Positions 6,000-61,659 of a DNA stretch of 64,000 bases are shown in pieces. Every line of letters starts with the position of its first letter. The first letter of the stretch is position 1. Made by a program: the position numbers and the translations under genes. The DNA is from a phage, in assembly GCA_018175075.1 (NCBI GenBank), contig GCA_018175075.1_4100.2, one strand, 5' to 3'. Under the pieces are notes generated by a model. The model did no database searches. It was not told the origin of the DNA and saw nothing but the letters and a program-made list of their open reading frames with translations.

Positions 6000-6728
6000 A
6001 TGATAGATAATATAAAATTTGCAACAGAAATGGCGAATCAACTCAATATTGCAAATTTCCAAATGTTAACATCTGTTATGGCTGAACATGCTGCGGCATA
6101 TTCATCTAGCGGTATACAATGTGGACAAGCTAACATGTTAGCTGATGTTTATAGTGAAGTTCAAAGCAAACAATATAGCGTAAAGACATACAAGGATAAG
6201 TTCGTAAGTCTTTATATGAATGAAGATATTTCAGAAGACCGCAAATTCACCGATTTTATTATTGAACGCCGTATTAGTGGGGTTTCAGACCCAAATGCAG
6301 CAAGTGATATTGTATTCGATGAGGTATTAAAAGATATATATGAAAATGAATTGAAAAGTAAGAATCATTACAATGTACGTGAAACTAACACAGTGCTAGT
6401 TGGATATGATGAAGACGACCAATATTTCTATTTTCGTATAACAGAAGTTCCATTTGAATATAAAAAACCATCCACTACATCGGTAAAAGAATTCACTGAG
6501 AAGAGTAAAAACTTCAAGAAACACGAAGGAAACCGTTGTAGTATTAATGGTTATGATGAAAATGGTGTTCATGTTTATGAATGGGTTTCACCTAATTGCC
6601 AAACATACACTCGTTGCTTGAAAAAACGTTATAATTTAGAAGAGCATGAATCATTCTATTTTAAAGTTAAGAAGCAAGGTTACACTCGCCCCGCCGATTC
6701 TGAATTGATGGGTATGATATATTTCTAA
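6000..6728 (+). CDS. hypothetical protein
   Basis: ORF with ATG start. Confidence 0.5.
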   Translation: MIDNIKFATEMANQLNIANFQMLTSVMAEHAAAYSSSGIQCGQANMLADVYSEVQSKQYSVKTYKDKFVSLYMNEDISEDRKFTDFIIERRISGVSDPNAASDIVFDEVLKDIYENELKSKNHYNVRETNTVLVGYDEDDQYFYFRITEVPFEYKKPSTTSVKEFTEKSKNFKKHEGNRCSINGYDENGVHVYEWVSPNCQTYTRCLKKRYNLEEHESFYFKVKKQGYTRPADSELMGMIYF

Positions 6729-6738
6729 GGAAACTTCT

Positions 6739-7020
6739 ATGGATTTTTATCTACACACATGGACATACGAACAATATATTACATTATATCTTGAAATTAT
6801 TAACACAGAACCTAGGTGTGGTTGTTGGTTCGCAGATATCATAAAAGAGTATGCTGACGAGTTCGAGTTTGTGTATCTTGGGTCTGATATATTTGTAAAA
6901 AGTGTAGGTAAAACCGGACGAATCACTGATATAGATTACGACACTGTTAGTGTGAATTTCTATGTTGATTTTCCTGATGCTGGCGTTGATGGTGTATATT
7001 GTCTTTATGAAATAATTTAA
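6739..7020 (+). CDS. hypothetical protein
   Basis: ORF followed by terminator. Confidence 0.5.
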   Translation: MDFYLHTWTYEQYITLYLEIINTEPRCGCWFADIIKEYADEFEFVYLGSDIFVKSVGKTGRITDIDYDTVSVNFYVDFPDAGVDGVYCLYEII

Positions 7021-7027
7021 ATTCTTA

Positions 7028-7051
7028 GGCCAGCGTTTGCTGGTCTTTTTT
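7028..7051 (+). terminator. intrinsic terminator
   Basis: Hairpin CCAGC...GCTGG plus T-run. Confidence 0.6.
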
Positions 7052-7064
7052 CGCAGGTACAAAG

Positions 7065-7367
7065 ATGTTCAGTATAGATTTAATTAACAGTACTATCAAA
7101 ATGTTGGCTGATTTGGTGAGACAATCAAATGGAACTTTATATTCTGCAATGTATAAAATGTTTGACCGATATATCAAGGATTGTAACATATCATTATATG
7201 GACTTGCTGTTGATATAGACGATTACTATGGAATTAATACTTCATATAAAACAGGAATTTTAATTGGTATTAATATAAAGATGGGGTATTTCCCTTATTA
7301 CTGTATAGGATTACCAGATAATACTTTGGTAGAATATCCAGCCAGTACTATTAAATTAAGAGGATAA
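7065..7367 (+). CDS. hypothetical protein
   Basis: ORF. Confidence 0.5.
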   Translation: MFSIDLINSTIKMLADLVRQSNGTLYSAMYKMFDRYIKDCNISLYGLAVDIDDYYGINTSYKTGILIGINIKMGYFPYYCIGLPDNTLVEYPASTIKLRG

Positions 7368-7374
7368 AACTAAA

Positions 7375-7953
7375 ATGAATGTATTAGAATTAAGTACTAA
7401 GCTGATTAGTATGCGTAATGAGTGGTACGATTGGTTTTATAATGGTACTGATATGGATTTTTCAAAATATCCATTTATGGAATCAGGATGTGATGCAAGA
7501 TACCGCTGGTTGAGCAAAGATTGTTCTGGTTTACATATTCTAGTTGACGATAGTGGTCAGGGAATTATAAAAGATTTACTTCAAGTTGAACAACTCGTCC
7601 ATGATAATTGGTGTGATAACGATCCATACCTTGGAAATATGATTTATGTAAGTGAAGATGATTGCATATTCGTTATCCAGCGTCATGGTAATTCTATGTT
7701 TTATGTAGCAGACAGCAGTACTCCAGAAGGTGCAGCAGCCGATGGTCTTATGCCTAAGATTGATATATTGGAATTTGGATTACCTGAGCACTTCCAGATT
7801 AGTACTTTATACGATATTCCACCACTTGAGTTCTTTGAAGAATTTAAATTGTACTACAATGATCTTCAAAAATTGAGTACTGATCGACGCATTGAAATAA
7901 CTGTTAAGTACATGGACGGAACGAAATTAACTGATACGGGGATAGAATTTTGA
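7375..7953 (+). CDS. hypothetical protein
   Basis: ORF. Confidence 0.5.
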   Translation: MNVLELSTKLISMRNEWYDWFYNGTDMDFSKYPFMESGCDARYRWLSKDCSGLHILVDDSGQGIIKDLLQVEQLVHDNWCDNDPYLGNMIYVSEDDCIFVIQRHGNSMFYVADSSTPEGAAADGLMPKIDILEFGLPEHFQISTLYDIPPLEFFEEFKLYYNDLQKLSTDRRIEITVKYMDGTKLTDTGIEF

Positions 7954-8639
7954 TTAAAGATTTAGATAGAATTTTATATGTACTAAGGGGTGTAATTACA
8001 TTACATCCACAAATCAATCGAATTGAAAGTACATTTCAGTTGGAGTCAAGAGAAACTCCATATTCACATATATCAAATGTAGTTGGTTCACTCAGTACTG
8101 AAGACTCGCCTTACGATATTTGTGTATGTGAAGTACAACCAAGTTCGGATCTTGGATTTGCTATTTTTGATAAAAATCAAAATCTCATTAGTATGTTTCA
8201 GTGCAATAATCCTTTTTGGAAAACATGCCTGTATCCAGAGTGGGCGATGCTTGATCCAACCAAGAGTACCATTAAAGTTTATGACTCTAAAAATGATGAA
8301 GTCGTTATTGATTTGGATGAGTCAATGTCAGAGGAAGAACACTTTCAGCTAATGATGATGCGTGCTATGCCTGAGTACAATGCAATGATTAACACTGTGC
8401 AATACATTAAGGATACTATGCCATCATTGCGTACACATGAGTTTTGTCATCCTGTATTGTATGAACATTTGGATTTAGATTTCAGTACTATTAAATTTAA
8501 AGATAGTGTTATTAGATATATCCAAGAGGTTACTAAATTTGATTTTATTAGTACTATGAACAATAATCCAAAAACTAATTTTAGGCATCAGTACAATGAA
8601 TCTTTGTCCGGTGGACGCGATACAAGTTGGTGGAAATAA
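7950..8639 (+). CDS. hypothetical protein
   Basis: ORF; start overlaps previous stop. Confidence 0.5.
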   Translation: MIKDLDRILYVLRGVITLHPQINRIESTFQLESRETPYSHISNVVGSLSTEDSPYDICVCEVQPSSDLGFAIFDKNQNLISMFQCNNPFWKTCLYPEWAMLDPTKSTIKVYDSKNDEVVIDLDESMSEEEHFQLMMMRAMPEYNAMINTVQYIKDTMPSLRTHEFCHPVLYEHLDLDFSTIKFKDSVIRYIQEVTKFDFISTMNNNPKTNFRHQYNESLSGGRDTSWWK

Positions 8640-8640
8640 T

Positions 8641-8904
8641 ATGAATATTAAAGATAGATTACAATTACTATACACTATTGAACAGGCTGCTTTTGAACTT
8701 GTTAATAAAATCTCCGAAGAACTTCCCAAAGGAACTATAGTTCGTGTAATTGAGAGGGATTATGAATCTGGAGAAATTGAAGAACTAGTACTAACCGTGA
8801 ATAAAGTAACATACTATGAATCTGAGTTGGCTATCCAATGTATATCGGAAGATGGTAAAATATACTATTATGACACTGGTGTAGATATAGAGGTAATAAA
8901 ATGA
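8641..8904 (+). CDS. hypothetical protein
   Basis: ORF; start moved to ATG 8641 (GGTGGA upstream) to avoid overlap. Confidence 0.45.
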   Translation: MNIKDRLQLLYTIEQAAFELVNKISEELPKGTIVRVIERDYESGEIEELVLTVNKVTYYESELAIQCISEDGKIYYYDTGVDIEVIK

Positions 8905-10043
8905 CCCTTTTACAAATATATGAAGATTTAATGCACTTATGTAATACAAACGATGCGTTTTTTTATGTGGATCATAAAAGTCCTGCTGGTGGTACGTATC
9001 GTGTATTCAGTTATCGTCTAGCATCATACACTGATTTCATGCAACCAAATGCGTTGGAAACCCGTGGCTCTATGTGGGAAATTGATGAAGAAGGTGACAT
9101 GATACGTTGTGCAGCACGTACAATGAAAAAGTTCTTCAATGCTTACGAGAATCCTGCTACAATGTTCCCTGCTAACACCACATGCGATGACATTGCGGTA
9201 GTGATGCCTAAGTTGGATGGTTCGATTATCAGTACTTATCGTGATAATGATGGTGAGATTCGTTGTAAATCACATACTGCATTGTATTCTGACCATGCGA
9301 TTAACAGTACTCGACTTATTAACGAGAACCAGAATTTGTACCAGTACATCGACGAAGCGGAACGTTTAGGTTACACAGTTAATATGGAGTATACAAGCCC
9401 AGAGTACCGAATTGTATTACCATATCAGGTAGAACAACTGTTTGTACTGAACGTTCGACATCGTGTGAGTGGTGAGTTGCTATGTGGTAAAGCACTACGT
9501 GATAAGTTTCCATGTCTTGCACAGTACAGTACTAATATGACTGGAAAAGATATTCATCACACTTTTCCGGTACGAAATACCTTCCGTGAAAGCGTGGAGG
9601 AAGTTCATAAAATGCTTGATATTGAGGGTTTTGTGTGCATCCTAAATAATGGGACAATGTGTAAAATAAAGACTGACTGGTACAGTTCATTACATCTTAC
9701 AAAAGATAGTATTATTATTGATTCTCATTTATATGAAGCAGTATTAAATGGTTCAAGTGATGATTTAAAACAATTGTTCAGTACTGATGAATATGCTATG
9801 CAAAAGATATTAAGAATGGAACAATTGGTATTTTCGTGCTATAATGCATTACAAGATGAAGTAGAAAGCTTCGTCAAGGAACACAAGCACTTGGAGCGAA
9901 AGGAATTCGCAATGAAGGTTCAGGAGTGTTTAACTAATGAACTGAATCGTCAGGGCTTGGCCTTTGCAATGTATAACAATAAGAAAGTTGATTACAAAGA
10001 GACTCTTATAAAATACATGAAAATTGTACTAAAGGATTTTTAG
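8901..10043 (+). CDS. rnlA: RNA ligase 1 (T4 gp63-like)
   Basis: N-terminal region closely resembles T4 Rnl1 as I recall it (FFY...YR.FSY..ASY.D...P.ALE.RG.M.E); length 380 aa; RBS GAGGT. Confidence 0.85.
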   Translation: MTLLQIYEDLMHLCNTNDAFFYVDHKSPAGGTYRVFSYRLASYTDFMQPNALETRGSMWEIDEEGDMIRCAARTMKKFFNAYENPATMFPANTTCDDIAVVMPKLDGSIISTYRDNDGEIRCKSHTALYSDHAINSTRLINENQNLYQYIDEAERLGYTVNMEYTSPEYRIVLPYQVEQLFVLNVRHRVSGELLCGKALRDKFPCLAQYSTNMTGKDIHHTFPVRNTFRESVEEVHKMLDIEGFVCILNNGTMCKIKTDWYSSLHLTKDSIIIDSHLYEAVLNGSSDDLKQLFSTDEYAMQKILRMEQLVFSCYNALQDEVESFVKEHKHLERKEFAMKVQECLTNELNRQGLAFAMYNNKKVDYKETLIKYMKIVLKDF

Positions 10044-10073
10044 TACTATCTAGCCTAAGCACAAGGAGAAGTG

Positions 10074-10328
10074 ATGGCTAAACCTAAGTATAAAAATGAC
10101 GGTTCCCTTTCTCCGACTGAGTTCAGGAAAATACAAGAAGAAATCGATGAATTACAGCACAAACGCTCAATGAAAGGTGTGAAGATAAGTAAGAAACGAA
10201 TCGAGAATACCTTCGGATGTAGTAGTACTGAATACAAGAAGAAAAGGAAACCAAAAGGTGTTAAGCCGAGAATACATGATGTAACTCGCTATACATCGAA
10301 ACGTGAAAATAAATTTGATCCACTATAA
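10074..10328 (+). CDS. small lysine-rich basic protein
   Basis: RBS AAGGAG 5 nt upstream of ATG. Confidence 0.5.
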   Translation: MAKPKYKNDGSLSPTEFRKIQEEIDELQHKRSMKGVKISKKRIENTFGCSSTEYKKKRKPKGVKPRIHDVTRYTSKRENKFDPL

Positions 10329-10337
10329 GGAGTTCAT

Positions 10338-10568
10338 ATGAAAGTTGAAGTTCAGCATAGTATTGTTCAGGATATGTCAGTAGTTAAATTTCTTTCTCTG
10401 AAAGATTACTTCAGATGTATCAAGTTCCTAGAAGAATCTCAATTACAGTGGACCCCATTAAAGTACAGTTCATCCAATGATACTGCTAGTATTCGTTGTG
10501 ATGAATCTGTACTTGTGAAAATCTCCAAGCGATTTGGAGTAGGAAAAGTTAATGAGCACAGTAAGTGA
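10338..10568 (+). CDS. hypothetical protein
   Basis: ORF. Confidence 0.45.
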   Translation: MKVEVQHSIVQDMSVVKFLSLKDYFRCIKFLEESQLQWTPLKYSSSNDTASIRCDESVLVKISKRFGVGKVNEHSK

Positions 10569-10806
10569 CCTAAAATACTACAACAAAACTGCGGATACGT
10601 TTATTACTCATTTATATGAAGAATTTAGTCGTATCCGTAAGGAATATACAGGTAAATGTATTTTATATAGTTCTTATCATAGTGGTGGAATTGAAAGTGC
10701 TTACATTACTAAAGTGAAGTTTTCTGATGACTATCAATTACTCTTTGAATTAGATGATTGTTTCGTTATTGAAGCTTGTTTGATAGTGGATGTTCTAGAT
10801 AATTGA
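10552..10806 (+). CDS. small paralog-family protein (dispersed member)
   Basis: EYTGKCILY motif resembling the YIGK-x-V family motif. Confidence 0.45.
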   Translation: MSTVSDLKYYNKTADTFITHLYEEFSRIRKEYTGKCILYSSYHSGGIESAYITKVKFSDDYQLLFELDDCFVIEACLIVDVLDN

Positions 10807-10812
10807 GGACAT

Positions 10813-11127
10813 ATGAATAAAGAACTTGTATTTGAGAGGATCGAAAAGTTAAAGTACATTGAAAAGGAACTAATAGAATCTGTCGAATCAATGGTCGAAG
10901 ATTACGTTTTCGATTTTAAGAAAACATTGATTGGATGTAAAGTTAAATGCTGGGATCATACAATCAGAGAATGGTTCAGTACTATAATTCTTGATGTTAA
11001 AGTATCGCGTACTGCTATTGGTAATTTAGTAAATGGTGAATGCTTTGTATACACTGAATACAATAACGGAACAAGAAACCTTTCAAGAGGATGGCACAAA
11101 CTCGAAGATGTAGAATTCATTGAGTAA
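10813..11127 (+). CDS. small paralog-family protein (dispersed member)
   Basis: TLIGCKVKCW motif. Confidence 0.45.
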   Translation: MNKELVFERIEKLKYIEKELIESVESMVEDYVFDFKKTLIGCKVKCWDHTIREWFSTIILDVKVSRTAIGNLVNGECFVYTEYNNGTRNLSRGWHKLEDVEFIE

Positions 11128-11139
11128 CAAGGAGTAATA

Positions 11140-12072
11140 ATGCCAACTATTACACTAACAGTTGGATTACCTGGGTGTGGTAAAACCACATGGGCAGTTC
11201 AAGAAATTAAAAATGCCAAATCCAAGACTATCAACATCAACCGTGATGATATTCGTGAATCTATGGCTGGGTCACATGATGCTTACAAATTCAACGATGC
11301 TAATGAGCAGTACGTAACTAATTTACAGTTCAGTGCAGCAAATTCAGCAGCAGAGAATGGTTGGAACATCATCATATCCGATACAAACCTTAAACAACAT
11401 TTCCGTAATCTCTGGAAAGTATGGGCTAAAGATAATGGTTATGATTACAAAGAAAAGAACTTCTATGATGATTTTGTACCTAATGAAGACCGTGGTGCAG
11501 ATGTTCATGAATTCTTTAAGATTAAAGAGTTCGTAAAACTTTGTAAGAAATATAACCTCCAGCGTGAGCGTTCAGTACAAGATGATATCATTGACACAAT
11601 GGCAGATACGTACTATTATAGTAAGGCATTACACATTGGTTACTATGGTAATTCACGCGAAGCTGCTATCATCGTTGATATCGATGGAACTCTTGCTCAT
11701 AAATGGGGTCGTAATCCTTACGATGAAAGTACTGTTCTTCAGGATACACCTGATGAAGAAGTTATTTTGTCTATTATCGCTGAAGCAGTTTTTCATAAAC
11801 GCAAGATTATCGTCATGAGTGGGCGTACTGAAGGGTGTCGTACTGACACCGAACAGTGGCTTAAGAATTGGGGTGTTCCTTACGATGCATTGTTTATGCG
11901 AGGCATCGATGATAAACGTCCTGATGATGTTGTTAAATTCGACCTGTACATGAAAAATGTGGTTAATCAATACGATGTTAAAAAGGTATATGATGACCGC
12001 GAAGCCGTGACGTTCATGTGGCGTAAGCTACTTGGTTTGAAGGTATTTCAAGTAGATTTTGGACGTTTTTGA
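11140..12072 (+). CDS. pseT: polynucleotide 5'-kinase / 3'-phosphatase
   Basis: P-loop GLPGCGKTT and overall resemblance to T4 Pnk (INRDD, VDIDGTLA phosphatase motif); RBS AAGGAG. Confidence 0.85.
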   Translation: MPTITLTVGLPGCGKTTWAVQEIKNAKSKTININRDDIRESMAGSHDAYKFNDANEQYVTNLQFSAANSAAENGWNIIISDTNLKQHFRNLWKVWAKDNGYDYKEKNFYDDFVPNEDRGADVHEFFKIKEFVKLCKKYNLQRERSVQDDIIDTMADTYYYSKALHIGYYGNSREAAIIVDIDGTLAHKWGRNPYDESTVLQDTPDEEVILSIIAEAVFHKRKIIVMSGRTEGCRTDTEQWLKNWGVPYDALFMRGIDDKRPDDVVKFDLYMKNVVNQYDVKKVYDDREAVTFMWRKLLGLKVFQVDFGRF

Positions 12073-12112
12073 TAAAATAAATAGTGCATATATGACAAAA
12101 AGGACTTTCTAT

Positions 12113-17268: not shown

Positions 17269-17496
17269 ATGAAAGTAATTCAAGTTATGGTAGAAAAATA
17301 CCAAACTGAAGATGGTCGTATTTTTGATTCAGCTAAACAAGCTGAACACCATGAACGTATTATTTCGGGTGCACGTAAAGTATGTCCTACATGTAATGGA
17401 ACACAACAAGTACCGTCAGAAGATTACCGCAGCTTTTATGCTTGTCCACACTGTGATGGGAAAGGCTACGTAGAAAAACAAGAGGTATGGAAATGA
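17269..17496 (+). CDS. small zinc-finger protein (CxxCxGxG type)
   Basis: CPTCNGT and CPHCDGKG motifs. Confidence 0.5.
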   Translation: MKVIQVMVEKYQTEDGRIFDSAKQAEHHERIISGARKVCPTCNGTQQVPSEDYRSFYACPHCDGKGYVEKQEVWK

Positions 17497-17906
17497 AATT
17501 GTATTGTTTAACTAATATGTACTGCCAAGGTGTCCAAGCTGGTATTCAAGCATTCCATGCTGGTGTTAAACTAATTAAAGAATATGAAGGTACTGCTTTC
17601 AGTACTATTATTGATGAATGGTACTATGAACACGAAACTATTGTAGTACTAAATGCTGGTGGACATGATAAGTTAAATTCTTATTATAACAACCTTAGCA
17701 AACAGGGAAAAGTTCCGTTTGCCAAATTCAATGAAGCTGGATTGAATGATGCTATTACCTGTGTAGCAGTACTGTGTACGTCTGAAATGATTGAAGACAT
17801 GGCTGTTATGCGTATGAATCTTCCTGCTGGTGATCAACTAATGCAAGTAAAATATGGTGCATTGTTTGACACACTAAAAGCAATCAGTACAATGAGGACT
17901 ATTTGA
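17487..17906 (+). CDS. hypothetical protein
   Basis: ORF. Confidence 0.5.
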   Translation: MEMKLYCLTNMYCQGVQAGIQAFHAGVKLIKEYEGTAFSTIIDEWYYEHETIVVLNAGGHDKLNSYYNNLSKQGKVPFAKFNEAGLNDAITCVAVLCTSEMIEDMAVMRMNLPAGDQLMQVKYGALFDTLKAISTMRTI

Positions 17907-22212: not shown

Positions 22213-22908
22213 ATGGTTGAACAATTCATGTTTGGTGGTTATGCTAATGGCGAAGTACGTAACATTTCTATTCCTTACGTAGTTGAGAAAGTTAATGGTT
22301 CAGAACGTACATATGATCTAGCATCTCGTATGATGCAAGACCGTATCATTTTCCTTGATACTGATTTCAATGATCAAATGGCACATATCATCAAACAACA
22401 ATTGGTATGGTTAGACTCACAAGGTGATTCCCCTATTACATTCTACATTAGTTCACCGGGTGGTTCAGTACACGCAGGTTTGGGTATTGCAGATGTTGCT
22501 AAGTCTTGTATTTCCCCAATTCGCACTGTAGTTATGGGTTATGCAGCATCAATGGGTTGCTATACACAATCTGTTATTGGGACTAAAGGTTTCCGTTTAG
22601 GTGGTAAACGCTCATACTTCATGTGTCACCAAGTAAGTTCTGGTACACAAGGTCTAATTACTGACCAGAAGATTTCACTTAAACATTCTGATGCCCTAAA
22701 CACTCTATTGACTAAAGAAATTGCAGAAGCAGTTGGTGTATCACACGAACAACTACTGAAAGATGCGGATCGTGACCTGTGGTTGAACGCTGAAGAAGCA
22801 CTCGAATACGGTGAACATGGTTTCATTGATGGTATCATCCTCGGACCACGCAACGAAGAAGGTAAGTATCTCGTCAAACGTCGCGGTGGCGTTGAAGAGT
22901 GGGTCTAA
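22213..22908 (+). CDS. clpP: ClpP-family serine protease
   Basis: ISSPGGSVHAG, catalytic GYAASMG and CHQ motifs; RBS GAGGAA. Confidence 0.75.
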   Translation: MVEQFMFGGYANGEVRNISIPYVVEKVNGSERTYDLASRMMQDRIIFLDTDFNDQMAHIIKQQLVWLDSQGDSPITFYISSPGGSVHAGLGIADVAKSCISPIRTVVMGYAASMGCYTQSVIGTKGFRLGGKRSYFMCHQVSSGTQGLITDQKISLKHSDALNTLLTKEIAEAVGVSHEQLLKDADRDLWLNAEEALEYGEHGFIDGIILGPRNEEGKYLVKRRGGVEEWV

Positions 22909-25956: not shown

Positions 25957-26084
25957 ATTTTATTTCCTCTTATTAATAAACAACTACTTTTACAGATTGT
26001 TGTACCTTTTATATTTACACCGTCAACTAAATATCCACCTAAAGTGAATGGAAATTGGTCTTGTCCTGCGATTGGTTTTCCCAT
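25955..26084 (-). CDS. upstream small ORF (43 aa) translationally coupled to 25579..25956
   Basis: Minus-strand ATG preceded by TAAGGAG; stop TGA overlaps the main ATG; peptide MGKPIAGQDQFPFTLGGYLV resembles the main protein N-terminus MKAIAAQGKLPFNIGGFCV. Confidence 0.4.
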
Positions 26085-26162
26085 TAAGGGCACTCCTTAT
26101 AAAAAAGCTTTACATTTGGTATGTGTTTGTGATAGAATCTTCACAGTGATTGTACTAAGGGG

Positions 26163-26190
26163 ATTATCAGATGAGGGAAATTTGAGTTAA
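26163..26190 (-). promoter_or_regulatory. candidate minus-strand promoter (TTAACT -16- GATAAT)
   Basis: Read on reverse complement; lies in divergent intergenic region. Confidence 0.3.
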
Positions 26191-26203
26191 GTACAGAAAA
26201 AGT

Positions 26204-26232
26204 TTGACTTAAGTGTTTAAGTACTATATTAT
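26204..26232 (+). promoter_or_regulatory. candidate sigma70-like promoter (TTGACT -17- TATTAT)
   Basis: -35 TTGACT at 26204-26209; flanked by TTAAGT(AC) repeats. Confidence 0.45.
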
Positions 26233-26265
26233 TTATATCTTCCTAACCAAAATTAAGGATTTGTT

Positions 26266-26874
26266 ATGAAAAGACTATGGCTTGAGGTAGTACAAGCAGT
26301 AATGCTTCTGATGTTGATAAATTTTCCAGCCAGTGCTGGTATTGAAAGTAAAAATGTGATAAAGTACAATCCTGAAACACGTAATGTATATTTCATCTCA
26401 GATATTACGGATGGGTCACTAAAGCGTATGATGGAGTTGTATGATAAAGAACACTATGATACCATTACCATCACATCGCCAGGTGGTGATTTTGATGCTG
26501 GGATTAAAATGGCAAACTTCGTTAGAGACAATGGTATAAATTTAATTGTTTCTAGGTATTGCAACTCAGCATGTACTGTGGTATTCTTCAGTGTAGCTTT
26601 TGAAAAGCGATACATGATAAATCGCTCAGTACTGGGTCTTCATAACATTTCGATTAAAAGTAATGTTACTGATGGTGATAATTCATTTGTGTCTGTAAGA
26701 CAGCTATCAACTTTTACCGAAGAAATGGCAACAAAGGTAGGTTTCCTTTTTTCACTATATGCAGCAAATGGAATCCCACCAGAAGTTCTATTTAGAGTTA
26801 GTCGTTCTCGTGGTGAAGATGTTGTAATATTAACAAAACCAGAACTGGTTTTTTACGGTTCAGTCAAACAATAA
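26266..26874 (+). CDS. secreted ClpP/S49-fold serine protease-like protein
   Basis: N-terminal signal peptide (hydrophobic core, AGI); ITSPGGDFDAG and NSAC motifs resembling the ClpP SPGG and Ser-site regions; a His is present. Confidence 0.5.
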   Translation: MKRLWLEVVQAVMLLMLINFPASAGIESKNVIKYNPETRNVYFISDITDGSLKRMMELYDKEHYDTITITSPGGDFDAGIKMANFVRDNGINLIVSRYCNSACTVVFFSVAFEKRYMINRSVLGLHNISIKSNVTDGDNSFVSVRQLSTFTEEMATKVGFLFSLYAANGIPPEVLFRVSRSRGEDVVILTKPELVFYGSVKQ

Positions 26875-26944
26875 AAATAATTAAAATAACAGGATGATTA
26901 TGATGTACTTCCTTTGTTATTAATTATATTGAGATTATATAACT

Positions 26945-27205
26945 ATGACAAACATCCAAAACTTGACATCTATTATTTTTTATGCTACTGTAGTAATGTA
27001 TGCTACAGTTATTTTTCTAACAGTTTTCATTTACAAAGATTATCGTAATGGCTTTATTGATCCAACTACAATGAAGTTCAATTCAAAATTCGAAGCAATA
27101 ATTTATTATGTACTATCAACTTCATACTTGGTGTGCCTAATGTTGTTAGGAGCACTAATTTATATCTTATACACAACATTATTTGCAATTGGAGCTATTT
27201 TATGA
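26945..27205 (+). CDS. small membrane protein
   Basis: Two hydrophobic segments. Confidence 0.45.
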   Translation: MTNIQNLTSIIFYATVVMYATVIFLTVFIYKDYRNGFIDPTTMKFNSKFEAIIYYVLSTSYLVCLMLLGALIYILYTTLFAIGAIL

Positions 27206-27795
27206 CCTGTATTATTGCACACACTGACGGAGTAAGTTCTTTTATTGCTGGGGATAAGTTAGGAAGCAATGGATTTACAAAAACTGTTCAAACTGAGCCA
27301 AAGGTATTCGAGAAAGAATTTATCAAGTTACATGATGATGGACTAACTAGAACTAAAGAAGTAATGGCATTGGGTTATACTACATCATTTCGTATGGGTC
27401 AGTTGTTAAATTATAACCTTAATTTACCTGAACAAGATGCTAGTCAAACATTTTCACAATATTTGGTTCTTAAAGTTATTCCAATCATTCGTCAAATGTT
27501 TAAAGAAGAATGGGGTGCACGAGATGCATCACAAGATGTAGGTGGTGGACAATTTATCATTCTCCACAATCATACAATCTATGAAGTTCAAGAAGACTTT
27601 TCAGTACTACAACCTAAAACAAGAATTACCGCAGTAGGTAGTGGGACATATCATGCAATTGCAGCAATGCAAGCATATATTGAAGTTGAGAACGAATCTA
27701 AAAAACCACTACACGAACGTATCAAATCAATTTTTAAAATTGTTAGTGATAATGTAACAAGCGTAAGCGAAGAGTTTGATGTTTTAAAATATTAA
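27202..27795 (+). CDS. HslV/proteasome-like Ntn-hydrolase peptidase
   Basis: Predicted N-terminus MTCIIAHTDG...IAGDK and AVGSGTYHAIAAMQAY, compared with E. coli HslV TTIVSV...IAGDGQ and IAIGSGGPYAQAAARA; Thr2 would be N-terminal after Met removal. Confidence 0.5.
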   Translation: MTCIIAHTDGVSSFIAGDKLGSNGFTKTVQTEPKVFEKEFIKLHDDGLTRTKEVMALGYTTSFRMGQLLNYNLNLPEQDASQTFSQYLVLKVIPIIRQMFKEEWGARDASQDVGGGQFIILHNHTIYEVQEDFSVLQPKTRITAVGSGTYHAIAAMQAYIEVENESKKPLHERIKSIFKIVSDNVTSVSEEFDVLKY

Positions 27796-27822
27796 AAGTA
27801 CTAATATTATAAGAGAGAATAG

Positions 27823-28023
27823 ATGATGGCATACACAATTTATGAATGGGTTTTGAGTTTTTTTATAGTTTTTTCTATTGTTGTAATTTATAACAATGCT
27901 AAATGCTTATATAGAGACTTGAAATCCAATGGTTATCACAAAGATAATAATTTTATGTATGCCTATCATATTGGAATCATTCTGTTATTATCAATATATT
28001 TAATTGTTTTTTATAAGGATTGA
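27823..28023 (+). CDS. small membrane protein
   Basis: Hydrophobic ORF. Confidence 0.45.
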   Translation: MMAYTIYEWVLSFFIVFSIVVIYNNAKCLYRDLKSNGYHKDNNFMYAYHIGIILLLSIYLIVFYKD

Positions 28024-28025
28024 AT

Positions 28026-28778
28026 ATGATATCAGAAAAATTTATAAGCAATGAAGGTAAAAAGCGATTACTGATTATATCAGGTGCAGGACTTTCTGTT
28101 GAAAGTGGTATGGAACCTTTTCGATTTGATGATGGTTTGTGGGATACATTTAAAATTAATGATGTATGTAACATTGCTAGTTTAACTACGAAATATCACG
28201 TTGTTCATTCCTTCTATAATACATTACGTGTAAAATTGGGACAATGCGAACCCAATGCAATGCATTATTTTATAAAATCGTTAGAAGATCAATATGGTGA
28301 TTGCTTCCTTCATATGACTTCTAACATGGACGATCTTTATACTCGTATTGGTGGTCATGAGCTTAAACTTCATGGAAACTTGTGCGAAGTTATTGAAAAT
28401 TATAGTATCAATTCCGATGATTATAATGTTATTAACTGCGGATACGAACCATACATACCAAAACATGATGTTTTTGCTAAACCAAATGTAGTAATGATTG
28501 GAGAATATCATCGTTATGTTGATGGTATTCGCTTACCAATTTACGAAGAACGAAATAATGTGTTGAAATCTCTTAATGAAAATGATACAGTTATTGTAAT
28601 TGGTAGTAGCGATACAGTACTGGTATGGTCGAGATTAGCAGCAGCATTACCATGTTATAGTGTTAATGTTAACATTCGTAAAAATGATAATGATTTTTTG
28701 TTTAATGAAAAAGTTATCAAGCCAGCAACCAAAGCAATACCGCATCTAGAGACTATAATTAAGGAACGTATGAAATGA
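28026..28778 (+). CDS. Sir2-family (sirtuin-like) NAD-dependent protein
   Basis: GAGLSVESGMEPFR NAD-binding motif and LHGN catalytic His motif; start at ATG 28026. Confidence 0.65.
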   Translation: MISEKFISNEGKKRLLIISGAGLSVESGMEPFRFDDGLWDTFKINDVCNIASLTTKYHVVHSFYNTLRVKLGQCEPNAMHYFIKSLEDQYGDCFLHMTSNMDDLYTRIGGHELKLHGNLCEVIENYSINSDDYNVINCGYEPYIPKHDVFAKPNVVMIGEYHRYVDGIRLPIYEERNNVLKSLNENDTVIVIGSSDTVLVWSRLAAALPCYSVNVNIRKNDNDFLFNEKVIKPATKAIPHLETIIKERMK

Positions 28779-29326
28779 GTGTTAAAGAAGTTCCCTTTGG
28801 TGAATATGGCACACGTGCAAATTTTGTATTTTGTTATTTCTTTGCAAGAAAATGCAACCCTTACAAAAACTATGAGTTGAATGATATACCAGAAGTAAAT
28901 TTAGTATTACTGCAATTACGATGGGATGGTCTTCTTGGTGGATGTGGTGGAACCGTAGAAAGTACTGATATCTCACTAGAAGATGCGTTGCGTCGTGAAG
29001 TTCAAGAAGAAATGGATTACAATATTTTTGTTTCCCATCTTCGACCACTCAAAACTTTTGAAATTTACCCAGGTGCAAACAGTCACAGTTTTAGCTATGA
29101 AGTAACCTATGACGAGTTGAAACACATTAGAGATGGATACACTAATGCTAAACATGCAAGTGCAGAAGTTGCTGGTGTAAATTTATGTCATATTTCTCGT
29201 TATTCTAAGGGACAAAATCGAGAAGCGGGATATAATAATCTTATGACACAGAACTTCATCGGTACAGCAAAACAAGAATTGGAGTATCTGGTTCAAAAAG
29301 AAAACTTACTAATTAGTTATCTATAG
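28775..29326 (+). CDS. Nudix-like hydrolase
   Basis: GCGGTVE ... REVQEE matches a Nudix box with atypical spacing. Confidence 0.45.
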   Translation: MSVKEVPFGEYGTRANFVFCYFFARKCNPYKNYELNDIPEVNLVLLQLRWDGLLGGCGGTVESTDISLEDALRREVQEEMDYNIFVSHLRPLKTFEIYPGANSHSFSYEVTYDELKHIRDGYTNAKHASAEVAGVNLCHISRYSKGQNREAGYNNLMTQNFIGTAKQELEYLVQKENLLISYL

Positions 29327-29335
29327 GAGTTTAAC

Positions 29336-29656
29336 ATGTCTTACTCAATGTTTTTGGATGATATTCGTGATGCAAATCTATATTATCCAAACCAAGATAT
29401 GGTGGTATGTCGTGACTTTAAAAGTGCATGTGAATATGTTATTGAAAATGGAATTCCAGCATTTGTATCATTCGACCATGACTTGGGTGATGTGAGCGAA
29501 GACGAAAAGACTGGATATTCTTTTGCTAAGTTTCTTATTGATTATATGTTTGATAATAATATTAAAGAACCGTTTGAGTACTTTGTTCACAGTAGTAATC
29601 CTGTTGGTAAAATTAATATTGAAACATACTTAAACAATGGATTTAACTCATTATGA
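29336..29656 (+). CDS. hypothetical protein
   Basis: ORF; RBS GGAG. Confidence 0.5.
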   Translation: MSYSMFLDDIRDANLYYPNQDMVVCRDFKSACEYVIENGIPAFVSFDHDLGDVSEDEKTGYSFAKFLIDYMFDNNIKEPFEYFVHSSNPVGKINIETYLNNGFNSL

Positions 29657-29955
29657 TTCAAACACACATCAAAAGTCTTATTTGTACTGTTCTGTTAGGT
29701 GCAGGAGTTCTTTGGTTCGGACAGTATCACGAGAACACTAAGCGTACCAACATTCACTACAATACCGCAGAAGTTGTTAGTTTAGGACAATGTAGCGAGT
29801 CCAAATGTTCATTTATGTATAAAACCCAAAGTGGTGAAGTACGTAATGGACTATCAAGAGAACCAGTTTCAATTGGTCAACTTGTTTACCAGGAGTGCTG
29901 GGAAGAAAAGGTTCGAGGTTCACGTTGCTATGTTGAATACGAACCAAATATGTAA
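29653..29955 (+). CDS. small membrane protein
   Basis: N-terminal TM segment; conserved cysteines. Confidence 0.45.
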   Translation: MIQTHIKSLICTVLLGAGVLWFGQYHENTKRTNIHYNTAEVVSLGQCSESKCSFMYKTQSGEVRNGLSREPVSIGQLVYQECWEEKVRGSRCYVEYEPNM

Positions 29956-30015
29956 TAATCCGAGTCAATAACATTAGTCGAGTACAAGGATGTACTCATA
30001 ACTCAAGGATGTTTT

Positions 30016-31455
30016 ATGAAAAAATATACAATTGACACAAACGTACTACTATCTGACCCTAATGCATCTATTGCTTTTGATGGTGCTGCAATCATTCTAC
30101 CATTTACAGTACTGGAAGAATTGGATTCAATTAAGAGTCGTAATGTAGATGTTTCACGCGATGCTCGTGTTGCTATTCGTAACATTGAAGCAATTATTGC
30201 AGATGCATCACATGATGAGATTAGTAGTACTGGTGTTAATATTGCTGATGTTCATACCAATATGAATCCTGATAGCAAATTGTTTGTTATTACAAACGAA
30301 GAAGCTGAAGCACTAATTCGTACTAAAGGTTCAGAAGAGAAAGTTCAAACCCTTCTCAAAAGCACAGTACCTGATGATAAAATCATTCTGGTAGCTTTAG
30401 CAACAGAATCAGTACTGGTAACTCGTGATATCAACATGCGTATCAAAGCACTAAGTTATGGTGTCGAGGTACAAGATTATCGCCATGATATTGTTATTGG
30501 TGATAGTGATTTGATTCACATTGGTCAACACCATTTGGAAATCAATTTTTGGGAAGTATATAGCAACTTAACCAATACTAATATTCAATCCGAACAAGTT
30601 GGTCGTCGTTTGTATCATTACATTTCCAAAAGCTTGATTGAGCATTTGCTCCCACAAAATCTATGCATCGGGGATTATCTATATGATGATGCAGACGTAT
30701 TATTTGTGTACGAAGGTCAATCAGCAATTGAGGAAGATGATGGAACACTAACACCAGAAGATATTTTGGTATTCCAAGATATTGGACAATCAGTAGCTTT
30801 ACGTGCTAAAGTATGGGATATTAAAGCAAAGAATATCCAACAAGCACTCGCCATCAACAGTATTCTCGATCCTGATGTACATCTAACAGTACTGCTAGGT
30901 TCTGCTGGTACTGGTAAAACACTAATTACGATTGCGACTGCATTAGAATTAGTACTGGAAAAACGTAAATACGACCGAATCATCTTCTCTAAAACTCAAG
31001 ACTCACAGTTTGAAGATATTGGTTTCTTGCCAGGTTCAGAAGCAGAAAAAGTGATTCCATTCTGTGGAGCCGCAATTGACGCGTTAGAGTTTCTTCATAA
31101 AGATGATGCTAACCCTCAAGGTAGTATTGAAGAGATTATGAAACGTAATGTTATTCAATTTAAAGCACTAAACTTTGTACGTGGACGTTCATTCACCAAC
31201 ACTATTCTAGTAGTTGATGAATTCCAAAACATTACACCTGCACAAGCCAAAACAATCTTGACACGAGCAGGATTAAACTGTAAAGTAGTAATTATGGGTA
31301 ACTTGAGTCAGATTGACAGTAAGTTTATTAGTCCTGTTAACAGTGGTTTGACATATGTAACTGAGAAGTTTAAAGATTGGGCAGGTTGTCGTGTCATCGA
31401 ACTAGAAGGTGTTGTTCGTTCACCACTTGCAGAATTTGCTGAAGAAAATATGTAA
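30016..31455 (+). CDS. phoH: PIN-domain / PhoH-like ATPase
   Basis: N-terminal IDTNVLL (PIN-like); Walker A LLGSAGTGKT; Walker B-like ILVVDEFQN; RBS AAGGA. Confidence 0.8.
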   Translation: MKKYTIDTNVLLSDPNASIAFDGAAIILPFTVLEELDSIKSRNVDVSRDARVAIRNIEAIIADASHDEISSTGVNIADVHTNMNPDSKLFVITNEEAEALIRTKGSEEKVQTLLKSTVPDDKIILVALATESVLVTRDINMRIKALSYGVEVQDYRHDIVIGDSDLIHIGQHHLEINFWEVYSNLTNTNIQSEQVGRRLYHYISKSLIEHLLPQNLCIGDYLYDDADVLFVYEGQSAIEEDDGTLTPEDILVFQDIGQSVALRAKVWDIKAKNIQQALAINSILDPDVHLTVLLGSAGTGKTLITIATALELVLEKRKYDRIIFSKTQDSQFEDIGFLPGSEAEKVIPFCGAAIDALEFLHKDDANPQGSIEEIMKRNVIQFKALNFVRGRSFTNTILVVDEFQNITPAQAKTILTRAGLNCKVVIMGNLSQIDSKFISPVNSGLTYVTEKFKDWAGCRVIELEGVVRSPLAEFAEENM

Positions 31456-60562: not shown

Positions 60563-60779
60563 TTCATTTATGAAACGCGTTTTGAATGATGTACTATCTG
60601 GATTTAAAAAAGCAACTAGTCTTATTTTTAGTTCAGTAGTGATGGTTATTACCGTAATGGCATTTGCACTTGTACTGCATTTTGTACCATTCTGGTTAGT
60701 ATTCATTGTACTCATTGTTCTTCTAGGTACGCATGTTTATTATGTTTACCGTGAAGCTTTGGATGATGATAACGTTTAA
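60555..60779 (+). CDS. small membrane protein
   Basis: Two hydrophobic segments; followed by T-run hairpin. Confidence 0.45.
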   Translation: MVDSFMKRVLNDVLSGFKKATSLIFSSVVMVITVMAFALVLHFVPFWLVFIVLIVLLGTHVYYVYREALDDDNV

Positions 60780-60785
60780 AAGTGT

Positions 60786-60812
60786 TTGGCCTCACTATGT
60801 GGGGTCTTTTTT
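60786..60812 (+). terminator. possible terminator
   Basis: Weak hairpin then TCTTTTTT. Confidence 0.35.
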
Positions 60813-60823
60813 AAGGTATCTAT

Positions 60824-61267
60824 ATGCATAACGAAACTGAAGTCTTCAAACGTTTCATTGATATTTGTTTACACACGAATTTGGTATATTTGGGTCCAGG
60901 AGCAAACTTCAGAACTTTATCTTCAATTTTAGGATACACTGAACCATCATGCTTATATTGCGATGGGAACATGATCCATCTCACTGACGGTGATTTTAAT
61001 GTTCAGTACATTTCACAATGTGATATGTATGTGTTTAATACACCAGAATATAATATTATTATTGAAGAACGTACTAAAGATAATTACCCAACCCAATATG
61101 TAAGTTGGGATAGAACAGATTGCGTATATGCCACTGGTCCAGTACAGAAACCTATGAACTATCCTACTATTCATTTGAATGTTATCCATGATGAATTGAA
61201 AGATTACTGTAACAGTATTTCAGATTCGGAAACAAAATACTTTCCTATTATATTTTTTAAGGTTTGA
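60824..61267 (+). CDS. hypothetical protein
   Basis: ORF. Confidence 0.5.
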   Translation: MHNETEVFKRFIDICLHTNLVYLGPGANFRTLSSILGYTEPSCLYCDGNMIHLTDGDFNVQYISQCDMYVFNTPEYNIIIEERTKDNYPTQYVSWDRTDCVYATGPVQKPMNYPTIHLNVIHDELKDYCNSISDSETKYFPIIFFKV

Positions 61268-61659
61268 TTATGAGATGGCGTAAACGACATGTAACAAGAT
61301 TTGATAAAATAATCAAAAAGTATTTCTCGCATAAGTTAGATCCAATCATACTTCAACTAAGAAGTAGTATGTTTGATAGACGTTTCCCACAGTGTTTAGA
61401 ATCGTACAGTCGTAAACGTTACAAGAATGAATACCTGGTATATCGTTATGATTTATCAGAATTCTTTTTGAATACTCGTGTATCTGTACCCATCAGACTG
61501 TACTCAAGGGTAAAACGAAGTAGGGTTCAAGATATTACATATGGATATCTTATGATTGAAATCGACGACCTCAATGAAAAAACTGGCAGAAATTACAGTA
61601 CTTTATGTCTGGAAAACCATGATTCAATAAAAAGAATCATAGAAGAGTTGGGAAAGTGA
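61264..61659 (+). CDS. hypothetical protein
   Basis: ORF. Confidence 0.5.
   Translation: MIMRWRKRHVTRFDKIIKKYFSHKLDPIILQLRSSMFDRRFPQCLESYSRKRYKNEYLVYRYDLSEFFLNTRVSVPIRLYSRVKRSRVQDITYGYLMIEIDDLNEKTGRNYSTLCLENHDSIKRIIEELGK

Follow-up and report, generated by a model that had tools for sequence, protein, structure and literature searches.

A conserved five-gene sirtuin module in Asteriusvirus jumbo coliphages, set apart from a variable peptidase slot, and its possible part in NAD+-dependent RNA repair

The 64,000-nucleotide stretch of phage DNA that forms the window of this analysis (NCBI GenBank assembly GCA_018175075.1, contig GCA_018175075.1_4100.2) belongs to an Asteriusvirus jumbo coliphage of the 121Q/PBECO4/UB type and carries, at 28026-31455 of its + strand, genes for a sirtuin (Sir2), a NUDT16-like Nudix hydrolase, a cyclic-phosphate-processing receiver-like domain (cREC), a 100-amino-acid membrane protein and a PIN-PhoH2 RNA helicase-nuclease. 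These five genes are the core module of this phage group, and the two peptidase genes found upstream of them are an accessory part. The module may be a nicotinamide adenine dinucleotide (NAD+)-dependent system of RNA end processing (repair), as predicted by Iyer et al. in 2022, a reading that is ranked first here and to which somewhat less than an even chance is given. The genes and the conserved module were already known, the latter from the literature; what is added is that the boundaries are corrected to 28026-31455, that the peptidases are set apart from the module, that, as far as sequence searches can tell, NAD+ salvage and 2H genes are absent genome-wide in Asteriusvirus, and that the 2H gene adjoining the module elsewhere appears to be of the Acb1 family.

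The prediction derives from the work of Iyer, Burroughs, Anantharaman & Aravind (2022; PMC9503650, section 3.7.3), who described a distinct phage sirtuin clade in three types of gene neighbourhood and proposed that the sirtuin removes RNA 2'-phosphates in a KptA/Tpt1-like manner, while its partners act on cyclic phosphates by opening them, or break down the ADP-ribose cyclic-phosphate by-product. Type 1, published for Serratia phage BF, consists of sirtuin, 2H, Nudix, cREC and PIN genes (PMC9503650); the module of the window contains this gene set with the exception of a linked 2H gene. The other two published types were re-derived independently in the present analysis, from rV5-like and T5-like loci.

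Applied to the window, every substrate and every chemical step of the scheme is a prediction. The sirtuin would act as Tpt1/KptA does, the oxygen of an RNA 2'-phosphate attacking C1'' of NAD+ with departure of nicotinamide; the 2''-OH, activated by His116, would then attack the phosphate, leaving RNA with a 2'-OH and releasing ADP-ribose 1'',2''-cyclic phosphate. cREC would open cyclic phosphates, either on the ADP-ribose by-product or at RNA 2',3'-cyclic ends, the Nudix enzyme would cut the ADP-ribose pyrophosphate to AMP and a phosphoribose derivative, and PhoH2 would unwind or trim the RNA substrate. Sirtuin chemistry, in which attack at C1'' is followed by His-assisted attack of the 2''-OH, parallels the two steps of Tpt1, and a ligase, a kinase and a cyclic phosphodiesterase, followed by an NAD+-dependent 2'-phosphate remover, make up the parts list of fungal and plant Trl1 plus Tpt1. 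It is because of this match of parts list and chemistry that RNA repair is placed ahead of the other readings.

Conservation of the module was assessed by a profile scan of IMG/VR with the sirtuin, which returned 30 loci, 15 of them Rak2-like jumbo-phage loci long enough for gene order to be compared. The order Sir2, Nudix, cREC, 100-amino-acid protein, PhoH2 is kept in 15/15, with Sir2 identity falling as low as 43%. Since Nudix and cREC are fused into one polypeptide in nine lineages (9/15 loci), it may be argued that the two act on one small-molecule substrate. In the window the module genes overlap or abut, with 4-nucleotide overlaps at the Sir2/Nudix and cREC/100-amino-acid junctions, and the ratio of nonsynonymous to synonymous substitution rates (dN/dS) is at most 0.09 wherever it could be computed (cREC excluded). 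More generally, all genes tested against phage 121Q are under purifying selection, because dN/dS lies between 0.01 and 0.11 in every gene for which it is computable (the 66-amino-acid open reading frame was left out, and cREC has no synonymous differences).

A first description of the region, made from the letters alone and here called the sequence-only reading, had listed six genes at 26266-29326 as an accessory island pairing two proteases with Sir2 and Nudix genes. All six open reading frames are found in the order given, on the + strand and at the coordinates given, with catalytic motifs that look intact, and the identities assigned to them are borne out by profile, fold and motif evidence. 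The six genes apart, the end at 29326 does not hold, as it cuts through the middle of the conserved block, which runs 2.1 kb further; cREC (29336-29656), the 100-amino-acid membrane protein (29653-29955) and PIN-PhoH2 (30016-31455) were thereby overlooked, and cREC and PIN-PhoH2 are the informative partners of Sir2 and Nudix. The term 'accessory island' suits the lineage-variable peptidase slot but not the Sir2-to-PhoH2 block, which is syntenic in all 15 loci and of normal G+C. An island in the compositional sense was rejected, G+C being 0.31-0.35 and equal to that of the rest of the window.

The first gene of the module (28026-28778, + strand) encodes a protein that matches the sirtuin family PF02146 at an expectation value (E) of 4e-20, with 73 bits against a cutoff of 24. 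The motifs GAGLSVESG..FR and LHGN, by which the gene had been recognised, are present, and the catalytic residues are conserved in an alignment of 17 relatives, the check that had been proposed for the call: Gly20, Gly22, Ser27, Gly28, Asn100, Asp102 and His116-Gly117 are invariant. The Ala of GAG is replaced by Asn in two of the relatives (P0011 and P0013, 63-64% identity), which have GNG for GAG and from which the FR motif of the NAD+ loop is missing; their activity may be altered or lost.

The best sequence matches of the protein are E. coli CobB (E 3e-22) and SIRT5, and an AlphaFold2 (AF2) model (pLDDT 84, pTM 0.85) matches CobB structures 6rxq and 1s5p at E 1e-16, with TM-scores of 0.74-0.82. 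Profile searches thus do what they had been recommended for, and place the protein among CobB/SIRT5-like sirtuins, in a zinc-less phage clade. A search over 1.84 billion representatives gave 137 clusters at E <=1e-30, and among bacterial species-representative genomes no closer relative exceeding 34% identity was found, the matches looking like housekeeping CobB. No PADLOC defence model matches at E <=0.01. A defence-type Sir2 (ThsA, DSR, Sir2-HerA) was therefore rejected, the fold being CobB-like, fold searches returning deacylases, and the neighbours being Nudix, cREC and PhoH2 genes. By sequence and model, the protein appears to be a phage-specific offshoot of CobB-like sirtuins rather than a defence NADase, and the suggested analogy with NAD-depleting defence effectors is weak, because the protein is CobB/SIRT5-like in sequence and fold and has no PADLOC match.

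This kinship also bears on a different function, namely that early in infection the sirtuin, as an NAD+-dependent lysine deacylase (or else a protein ADP-ribosyltransferase), reprogrammes proteins of the host or the phage, and that the O-acyl-ADP-ribose or ADP-ribose so formed is cleared by Nudix and cREC to AMP and sugar phosphates. Such protein modification is possible, if rather unlikely. The matches to CobB and SIRT5 are what it would lead one to expect, as is the full sirtuin catalytic set, general-base His included, and NUDT16-type enzymes are known as a family to act on ADP-ribose-containing substrates (for their cleavage of NAD caps see PMC7337524). However, the Cys4 zinc module, which shapes the peptide cleft, is lost: just two non-conserved Cys lie between HG and GE, no CxxC occurs in the Rak2-like sirtuin clade, and the position of the zinc site is held by a conserved '..EVIENYS...GYEPYIP..' segment. 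Of the Tyr-x-x-Arg pair with which CobB binds succinyl groups, the Arg aligns with Leu in the phage protein. Furthermore, the gene context in three phage lineages speaks for RNA enzymes rather than protein-modification partners, and no macro domain adjoins the sirtuin. In the wider clade the Cys4 site is also missing from about 41 of 94 scorable representatives, zinc-containing and zinc-less members being interleaved and having in common an 'IGY' motif that is missing from CobB.

The Nudix gene (28775-29326, + strand), the start of which overlaps the Sir2 stop, encodes a member of PF22327 (E 8e-19, 68.6 bits against a cutoff of 27) with NUDT16 and X29 as best matches in the PDB (E 3e-12) and with invariant R74-E75-x2-E78-E79 residues aligned to the NUDT16 sequence RELREEL. 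By family assignment (PF02146 and NUDT16-like PF22327), Sir2 and Nudix belong, as had been proposed, to NAD/ADP-ribose chemistry. cREC (29336-29656, + strand), a domain defined in PMC7824862, matches PF20274 at E 1.5e-22, scoring 80.5 bits where the cutoff is 27; it retains DD and SFDHDLGD as conserved motifs, and HS(A/S)NP(V/I)G hardly varies. No kinase gene was found in the cREC neighbourhood of the window phage. The 100-amino-acid protein (29653-29955, + strand; PHROG 14661, 'membrane protein') matched no known family, and stands between cREC and PhoH2 in 15/15 Rak2-like loci. Its N-terminus is variable and hydrophobic, and its C-terminal domain of about 65 residues contains four invariant Cys and the motifs GQC and GQLVYQxCW.

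The last gene of the module (30016-31455, + strand) encodes a PIN-PhoH2 protein with PIN_4 (E 7e-20, 72 bits) and PhoH (E 7e-44, 150 bits) domains; the NCBIfam PhoH2 model is matched at E 2e-44 with 152 bits, short of the equivalog cutoff of 680. Identity across genera is 70-80%, and Asp7, Glu34/35, Asp120/121, Asp138, the Walker A motif GSAGTGKT and the Walker B motif DE are invariant. Together with a NUDT16-like partner, such a protein brings to mind the turnover of RNA caps, in which the Nudix enzyme would remove NAD or other metabolite caps, PhoH2 would degrade the decapped RNA and the sirtuin would use NAD or NAD-capped RNA as donor. Mammalian NUDT16 indeed cleaves NAD, FAD and dephospho-CoA (dpCoA) caps (PMC7337524), and PhoH2-type proteins join, by their NCBIfam name, an RNA helicase with a PIN RNase. 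Cap turnover is nevertheless very unlikely, as it has no role for cREC, leaves the Nudix-cREC fusion unexplained, and nothing in the data points to caps.

The RNA-repair reading is further strengthened by loci in which the sirtuin clade is linked independently to RNA ligase, kinase and HAD genes. In rV5-like loci (L025 at 6685-12075, L023 and L028) the genes run in the order metallophosphoesterase, RNA_lig_T4_1 ligase, cREC, 134-amino-acid kinase without a phosphatase domain, Sir2, DNA ligase, which contains the parts of fungal Trl1 plus Tpt1. In T5-like loci the gene after Sir2 encodes a HAD_SAK_2 'RNA repair' phosphatase. The sirtuins of these phages are of the same clade, at 31-40% identity.

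Several points weigh against RNA repair and keep the assignment tentative. The closest solved relatives of the sirtuin are the protein deacylases CobB and SIRT5, and no biochemical or experimental paper on this sirtuin clade or on cREC was found in the literature. The window phage already has a T4-type RNA ligase 1 (Rnl1; 8901-10043, + strand; Pfam RNA_lig_T4_1 and T4_Rnl1_C) and a polynucleotide kinase-phosphatase (PNKP; 11140-12072, + strand; Pfam AAA_33 and HAD_PNKP) with its phosphatase domain, and repair by the route of T4-type Rnl1 and PNKP leaves no 2'-phosphate to be removed. PIN nucleases, in turn, leave 3'-OH ends, not cyclic phosphates. The 2H enzyme of the published model is absent genome-wide in Asteriusvirus, and in sister phages it is of the Acb1 family, not LigT-type. 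The conserved 100-amino-acid membrane protein has no role in the model. Moreover, the 15 jumbo-phage loci are one syntenic lineage, in which gene order may be merely inherited and is weak evidence alone, and no NUDT16-like Nudix was found outside Rak2-like phages, the IMG/VR scan having returned the same contigs only and hence no independent test.

The ligase and kinase-phosphatase genes (8901-12072) are not contiguous with the module, but lie 16-19 kb upstream of it within the same gene block. The same block includes, at 17487-17906, a PTH2-like peptidyl-tRNA hydrolase domain (E 2e-5) that carries only the label 'hydrolase'.

In every lineage the + strand block starts after the same minus-strand Ig-like virion gene, and the stretch from there to Sir2 is a variable slot. 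Its content is (i) ClpP-like, TM86, HslV-like and TM66 genes in Asteriusvirus; (ii) ClpP-like, NMNAT-Nudix and Nampt genes in RaK2; (iii) NMNAT-Nudix, a 173-amino-acid protein, Nampt, a small membrane protein, 2H and a zinc-binding protein in BF-type phages; and (iv) NMNAT-Nudix, Nampt, HslV-like and 2H genes in a fourth type. In the window, 26266-28023 is such a lineage-variable slot, heading an early gene block that is probably transcribed from a host-type promoter. The pairing of proteases with Sir2 and Nudix is not conserved: within 10 kb of Sir2, a ClpP-like gene is found in 2/15 Rak2-like loci (121Q-type phages and RaK2) and an HslV-like gene in 4/15, and relatives of the HslV-like gene occur elsewhere without Sir2.

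The content of the slot in the sister genera, where Nampt and NMNAT-Nudix precede the module in every non-Asteriusvirus locus and an Acb1-family 2H gene in most, speaks for a role in counter-defence; Nampt and NMNAT are parts of the NARP2 pathway of NAD+ reconstitution (PMC13464706). On this account Nudix and cREC would break down ADP-ribose-derived immune signals, or else toxic metabolites, and the sirtuin would modify a host defence component, all within the counter-defence region to which the salvage and Acb1-like genes of the sister genera belong. Iyer et al. (PMC9503650) have indeed argued that soluble ADP-ribose derivatives are what Nudix, cREC and Macro domains of phages mainly counter, and a host-type promoter would give early expression. 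Counter-defence is held to be unlikely all the same: degradation of a signal needs no NAD+-consuming sirtuin, no literature report was found of Thoeris-type signals being broken down by a Nudix or cREC from a phage, and Asteriusvirus has lost the salvage and 2H genes but kept the module, so the parts are separable. The 2H gene of Serratia phage BF (L011, 9311-9757) scores 56 bits with Pfam Acb1 (anti-CBASS; cutoff 27) and stays below threshold with LigT-type 2'-5' RNA ligases. Judging from these profile scores, the 2H gene of the sister phages may be a counter-defence gene of the variable slot rather than a part of the module; it is dispensable and looks like an anti-CBASS enzyme.

The loss of the salvage genes is not confined to the slot. 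Counterparts of Nampt, NMNAT-Nudix and 2H are missing from the window and from the annotation of PBECO4, and in the complete 348-kb genome of PBECO4 a tblastn search found no Nampt (best E 0.69), no NMNAT-Nudix (none at E <=10) and no 2H (best E 6.5), 9/9 module and slot proteins being recovered as positive controls. Among the best 60 of 1,951 phage records with a Nampt match, no Asteriusvirus is found and every other Rak2-like genus is present. The gene at 649-1185, which the sequence-only reading had called NMNAT-like, does not fill this place. Its product (178 amino acids) belongs to PHROG 'cytidyltransferase' families; neither Pfam nor the PDB offers a match, and when compared by hhalign with phage NMNAT domains it reaches a probability of 10% over 51 columns, with only the generic motifs HxGH and SSTxxR in common; an NMNAT at this position was rejected on all three counts. 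Thus, of the earlier proposal that the phage makes, consumes or cleaves NAD, consumption and processing stand and making does not, the genome search of PBECO4 having revealed no recognisable NAD-making enzyme. Because the salvage genes are absent genome-wide and the NMNAT call is unsupported, Asteriusvirus would appear to consume and process NAD/ADP-ribose with no detectable NAD+ making.

Where sister genera hold salvage genes, the Asteriusvirus slot holds two peptidases, each trailed by a tiny membrane protein. The first (26266-26874, + strand) is, by fold, profile and motifs, a ClpP-fold protein and probable serine peptidase that starts with a signal peptide or membrane anchor, residues 4-26 being hydrophobic and ending in ASA|G. 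Its Pfam CLP_protease match is below cutoff (E 0.007, 16.6 bits against 20.2); profile comparison with ClpP in the PDB gives E 1.5e-3 and places Ser101 and His126 on the catalytic Ser and His of ClpP, and a Foldseek search with the AF2 model finds ClpP structures at E 1e-8 and TM-scores of 0.60-0.70. Ser101, His126 and the TSPGGD motif, which aligns to the ClpP oxyanion loop, are invariant, and no third residue of the triad was assigned in this sub-cutoff match. It is followed by an 86-amino-acid protein with two hydrophobic segments (TM86; 26945-27205, + strand; no family match; dN/dS 0.09 against 121Q), the stop of which overlaps the start of the next gene. This second peptidase (27202-27795, + strand) is an HslV-like N-terminal-threonine peptidase by PHROG, PDB profile and motifs: it matches PHROG 1040 at E 4e-24, no Pfam family, and HslV in the PDB at E 9e-7 with both ends aligned, and it stays below curated cutoffs (NCBIfam 19.9 bits against 137; TIGR03692 18.9 against 157.75). 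In an alignment of 30 sequences Met-Thr2-Cys3, Asp18, Lys34 and Gly146-Ser-Gly148 are invariant, Asp18 and Lys34 being the equivalents of Asp17 and Lys33; no HslU-like gene adjoins it. The slot ends with a 66-amino-acid protein of two hydrophobic segments (TM66; 27823-28023, + strand; no family match) that is kept in 121Q, E9.1 and PBECO4. To judge from the residues kept, both peptidases look catalytically competent.

Part of the slot has a history of its own. Against 121Q the synonymous divergence (dS) is 1.5 in the HslV-like gene and 0.57 in the 86-amino-acid gene, as compared with 0-0.14 in the flanking genes (window 26945-27795 against L001 8946-9799), which indicates a recombinational allele swap within the peptidase slot, independent of its neighbours. 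This swap bears on the unit originally proposed, in which both peptidases, Sir2 and Nudix would form one functional island, for example with proteolysis regulating or regulated by NAD-dependent modification. The genes are contiguous, co-oriented, tightly spaced and probably served by one promoter, and relatives of the HslV-like gene, found in early or auxiliary gene regions of many unrelated phage contigs, include one downstream of PhoH, Prs, Nampt and YAcAr genes in an 87.5-kb contig (L057, 1-6549) and a 309-amino-acid form directly after PhoH in another (L060, 329-2053). However, a third lies near Apyc1 and an FtsH-like gene (L061, 1304-6317), the neighbours of a fourth are uninformative, and Sir2 is present in 0/4 of these contexts; most of the loci in which the module is kept lack the peptidases, and the HslV-like allele was exchanged independently. 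No functional tie between the two peptidases and the sirtuin was found, and a single island is regarded as highly improbable. A more speculative suggestion, put forward because the slot elsewhere holds NARP2 and Acb1-like genes, is that the pair of peptidases, each with its trailing two-segment membrane protein, could be a new protease-based device for counter-defence or host takeover, which would replace the lost NAD+ salvage while the NAD+-consuming sirtuin module, possibly the first RNA-acting sirtuin, is kept; the HslV-like subunit may then borrow host HslU. Such a device is considered quite unlikely.

A candidate sigma-70-type promoter, TTGACT-17-TATTAT, was detected by consensus scan at the head of the + strand block (26204-26232, + strand), inside a 309-nucleotide divergent intergenic region. 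The window, 121Q, E9.1 and PBECO4 have this sequence in identical form; upstream of 26178 the DNA diverges, 26000-26178 being matched by 121Q only and all other relatives aligning from 26179. Of the claim that the genes have their own promoter, the near-consensus, conserved sequence is thus confirmed, but not an excess over chance in AT-rich DNA: promoter-like matches number 44 against 34.8 +/- 5.7 expected from shuffles. The candidate is therefore plausible and statistically indistinguishable from chance. An imperfect repeat, TTTGAGTTAAGTAC at 26181 and TTTGACTTAAGTG..TTTAAGTAC at 26203, flanks its -35 element and may be a site for a regulator; as a repeated phage promoter motif, the -35 context is no more frequent than chance allows. 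As terminators dividing the block, three weak hairpins at chance level, two inside open reading frames and one antisense in the first, were rejected, and no tRNA or structured RNA was found in the region.

As for the public record, the interval 26000-29700 shares 98.8% identity with Escherichia phage UB and about 20 further Asteriusvirus genomes and 94.3% with 121Q; used as a query, it matched 39 phage records, 24 of them with at least 80% query coverage. Genes 473-480 of 121Q in RefSeq and the corresponding genes of PBECO4 were already labelled protease, peptidase HslV family, Sir2 (NAD-dependent deacetylase), nudix hydrolase, membrane protein and PhoH-like, so that, at the level of gene naming, the sequence-only reading repeats public annotation. 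Elsewhere in the window, 22213-22908 encodes a canonical ClpP (PF00574, E 3e-41) to which public records give the name 'head maturation protease'; PBECO4 has an annotated T4-type prohead protease at another place (gp520), and the label may be wrong. PBECO4 also carries, at 60563-61534 (L036, 10563-11534), 2.2 kb downstream of PhoH2, a gene for a 323-amino-acid WGR-domain protein that is neither in the window nor annotated in the matching stretch of E9.1 or 121Q, and a macro-domain gene just beyond the region covered by the window; none of the PBECO4 WGR-domain, macro and other Nudix genes lies within the window.

As a discovery within the window these results add little, the genes being already annotated and the module already described; its mechanism is testable. 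They do narrow the minimal conserved set to the sirtuin, Nudix, cREC, the Cys4 membrane protein and PhoH2, and one genus is seen to run an NAD+-consuming module without phage NAD+ salvage. The clade of phage sirtuins provides a rare and concrete example of comparative genomics leading to the prediction of a new class of sirtuin substrate, RNA 2'-phosphate rather than acyl-lysine, and a phage of E. coli offers a tractable host in which to test the prediction.

Among known systems, the nearest is the type 1 neighbourhood of Serratia phage BF, which has a sirtuin of the same clade (44% identity), a NUDT16-like Nudix, cREC, the 100-amino-acid protein and PIN-PhoH2 in the same order; in the window, by contrast, Nudix and cREC are separate, 2H is absent genome-wide, and peptidases occupy the upstream place of the salvage genes. 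NARP2 fills the slot immediately ahead of this module in all sister genera; neither the window nor the PBECO4 genome has it. With the class III sirtuins E. coli CobB and human SIRT5 the phage sirtuin has in common GAGxS, the Asn, the Asp and the catalytic His; CobB and SIRT5 have Cys4 zinc knuckles, whereas the phage clade has the 'GYEPYIP' segment instead and its genes, unlike theirs, adjoin those of RNA and ADP-ribose enzymes. The RE-x2-EE motif of NUDT16 and X29 and their C-terminal FIG(T/S)A motif align with the phage Nudix, which, unlike them, is often fused to cREC. The active-site residues and fold of bacterial HslV, and the fold and the aligned Ser and His of ClpP, are also found in the phage peptidases, but these score under the curated family cutoffs and have no adjoining cognate AAA+ partner, and the axial N-terminal loops of ClpP are replaced by a signal or anchor sequence. 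Finally, the Trl1 (ligase-kinase-cyclic phosphodiesterase), Tpt1, Cpd1 and Poa1 pathway by which fungi and plants heal RNA ends in tRNA splicing would share with the phage module the same proposed logic, clean-up of the by-product included, but no homologous protein: a sirtuin would stand in for Tpt1 of the ADP-ribosyltransferase (ART) fold, cREC for the 2H enzyme Cpd1, and Nudix for the macro-domain protein Poa1.

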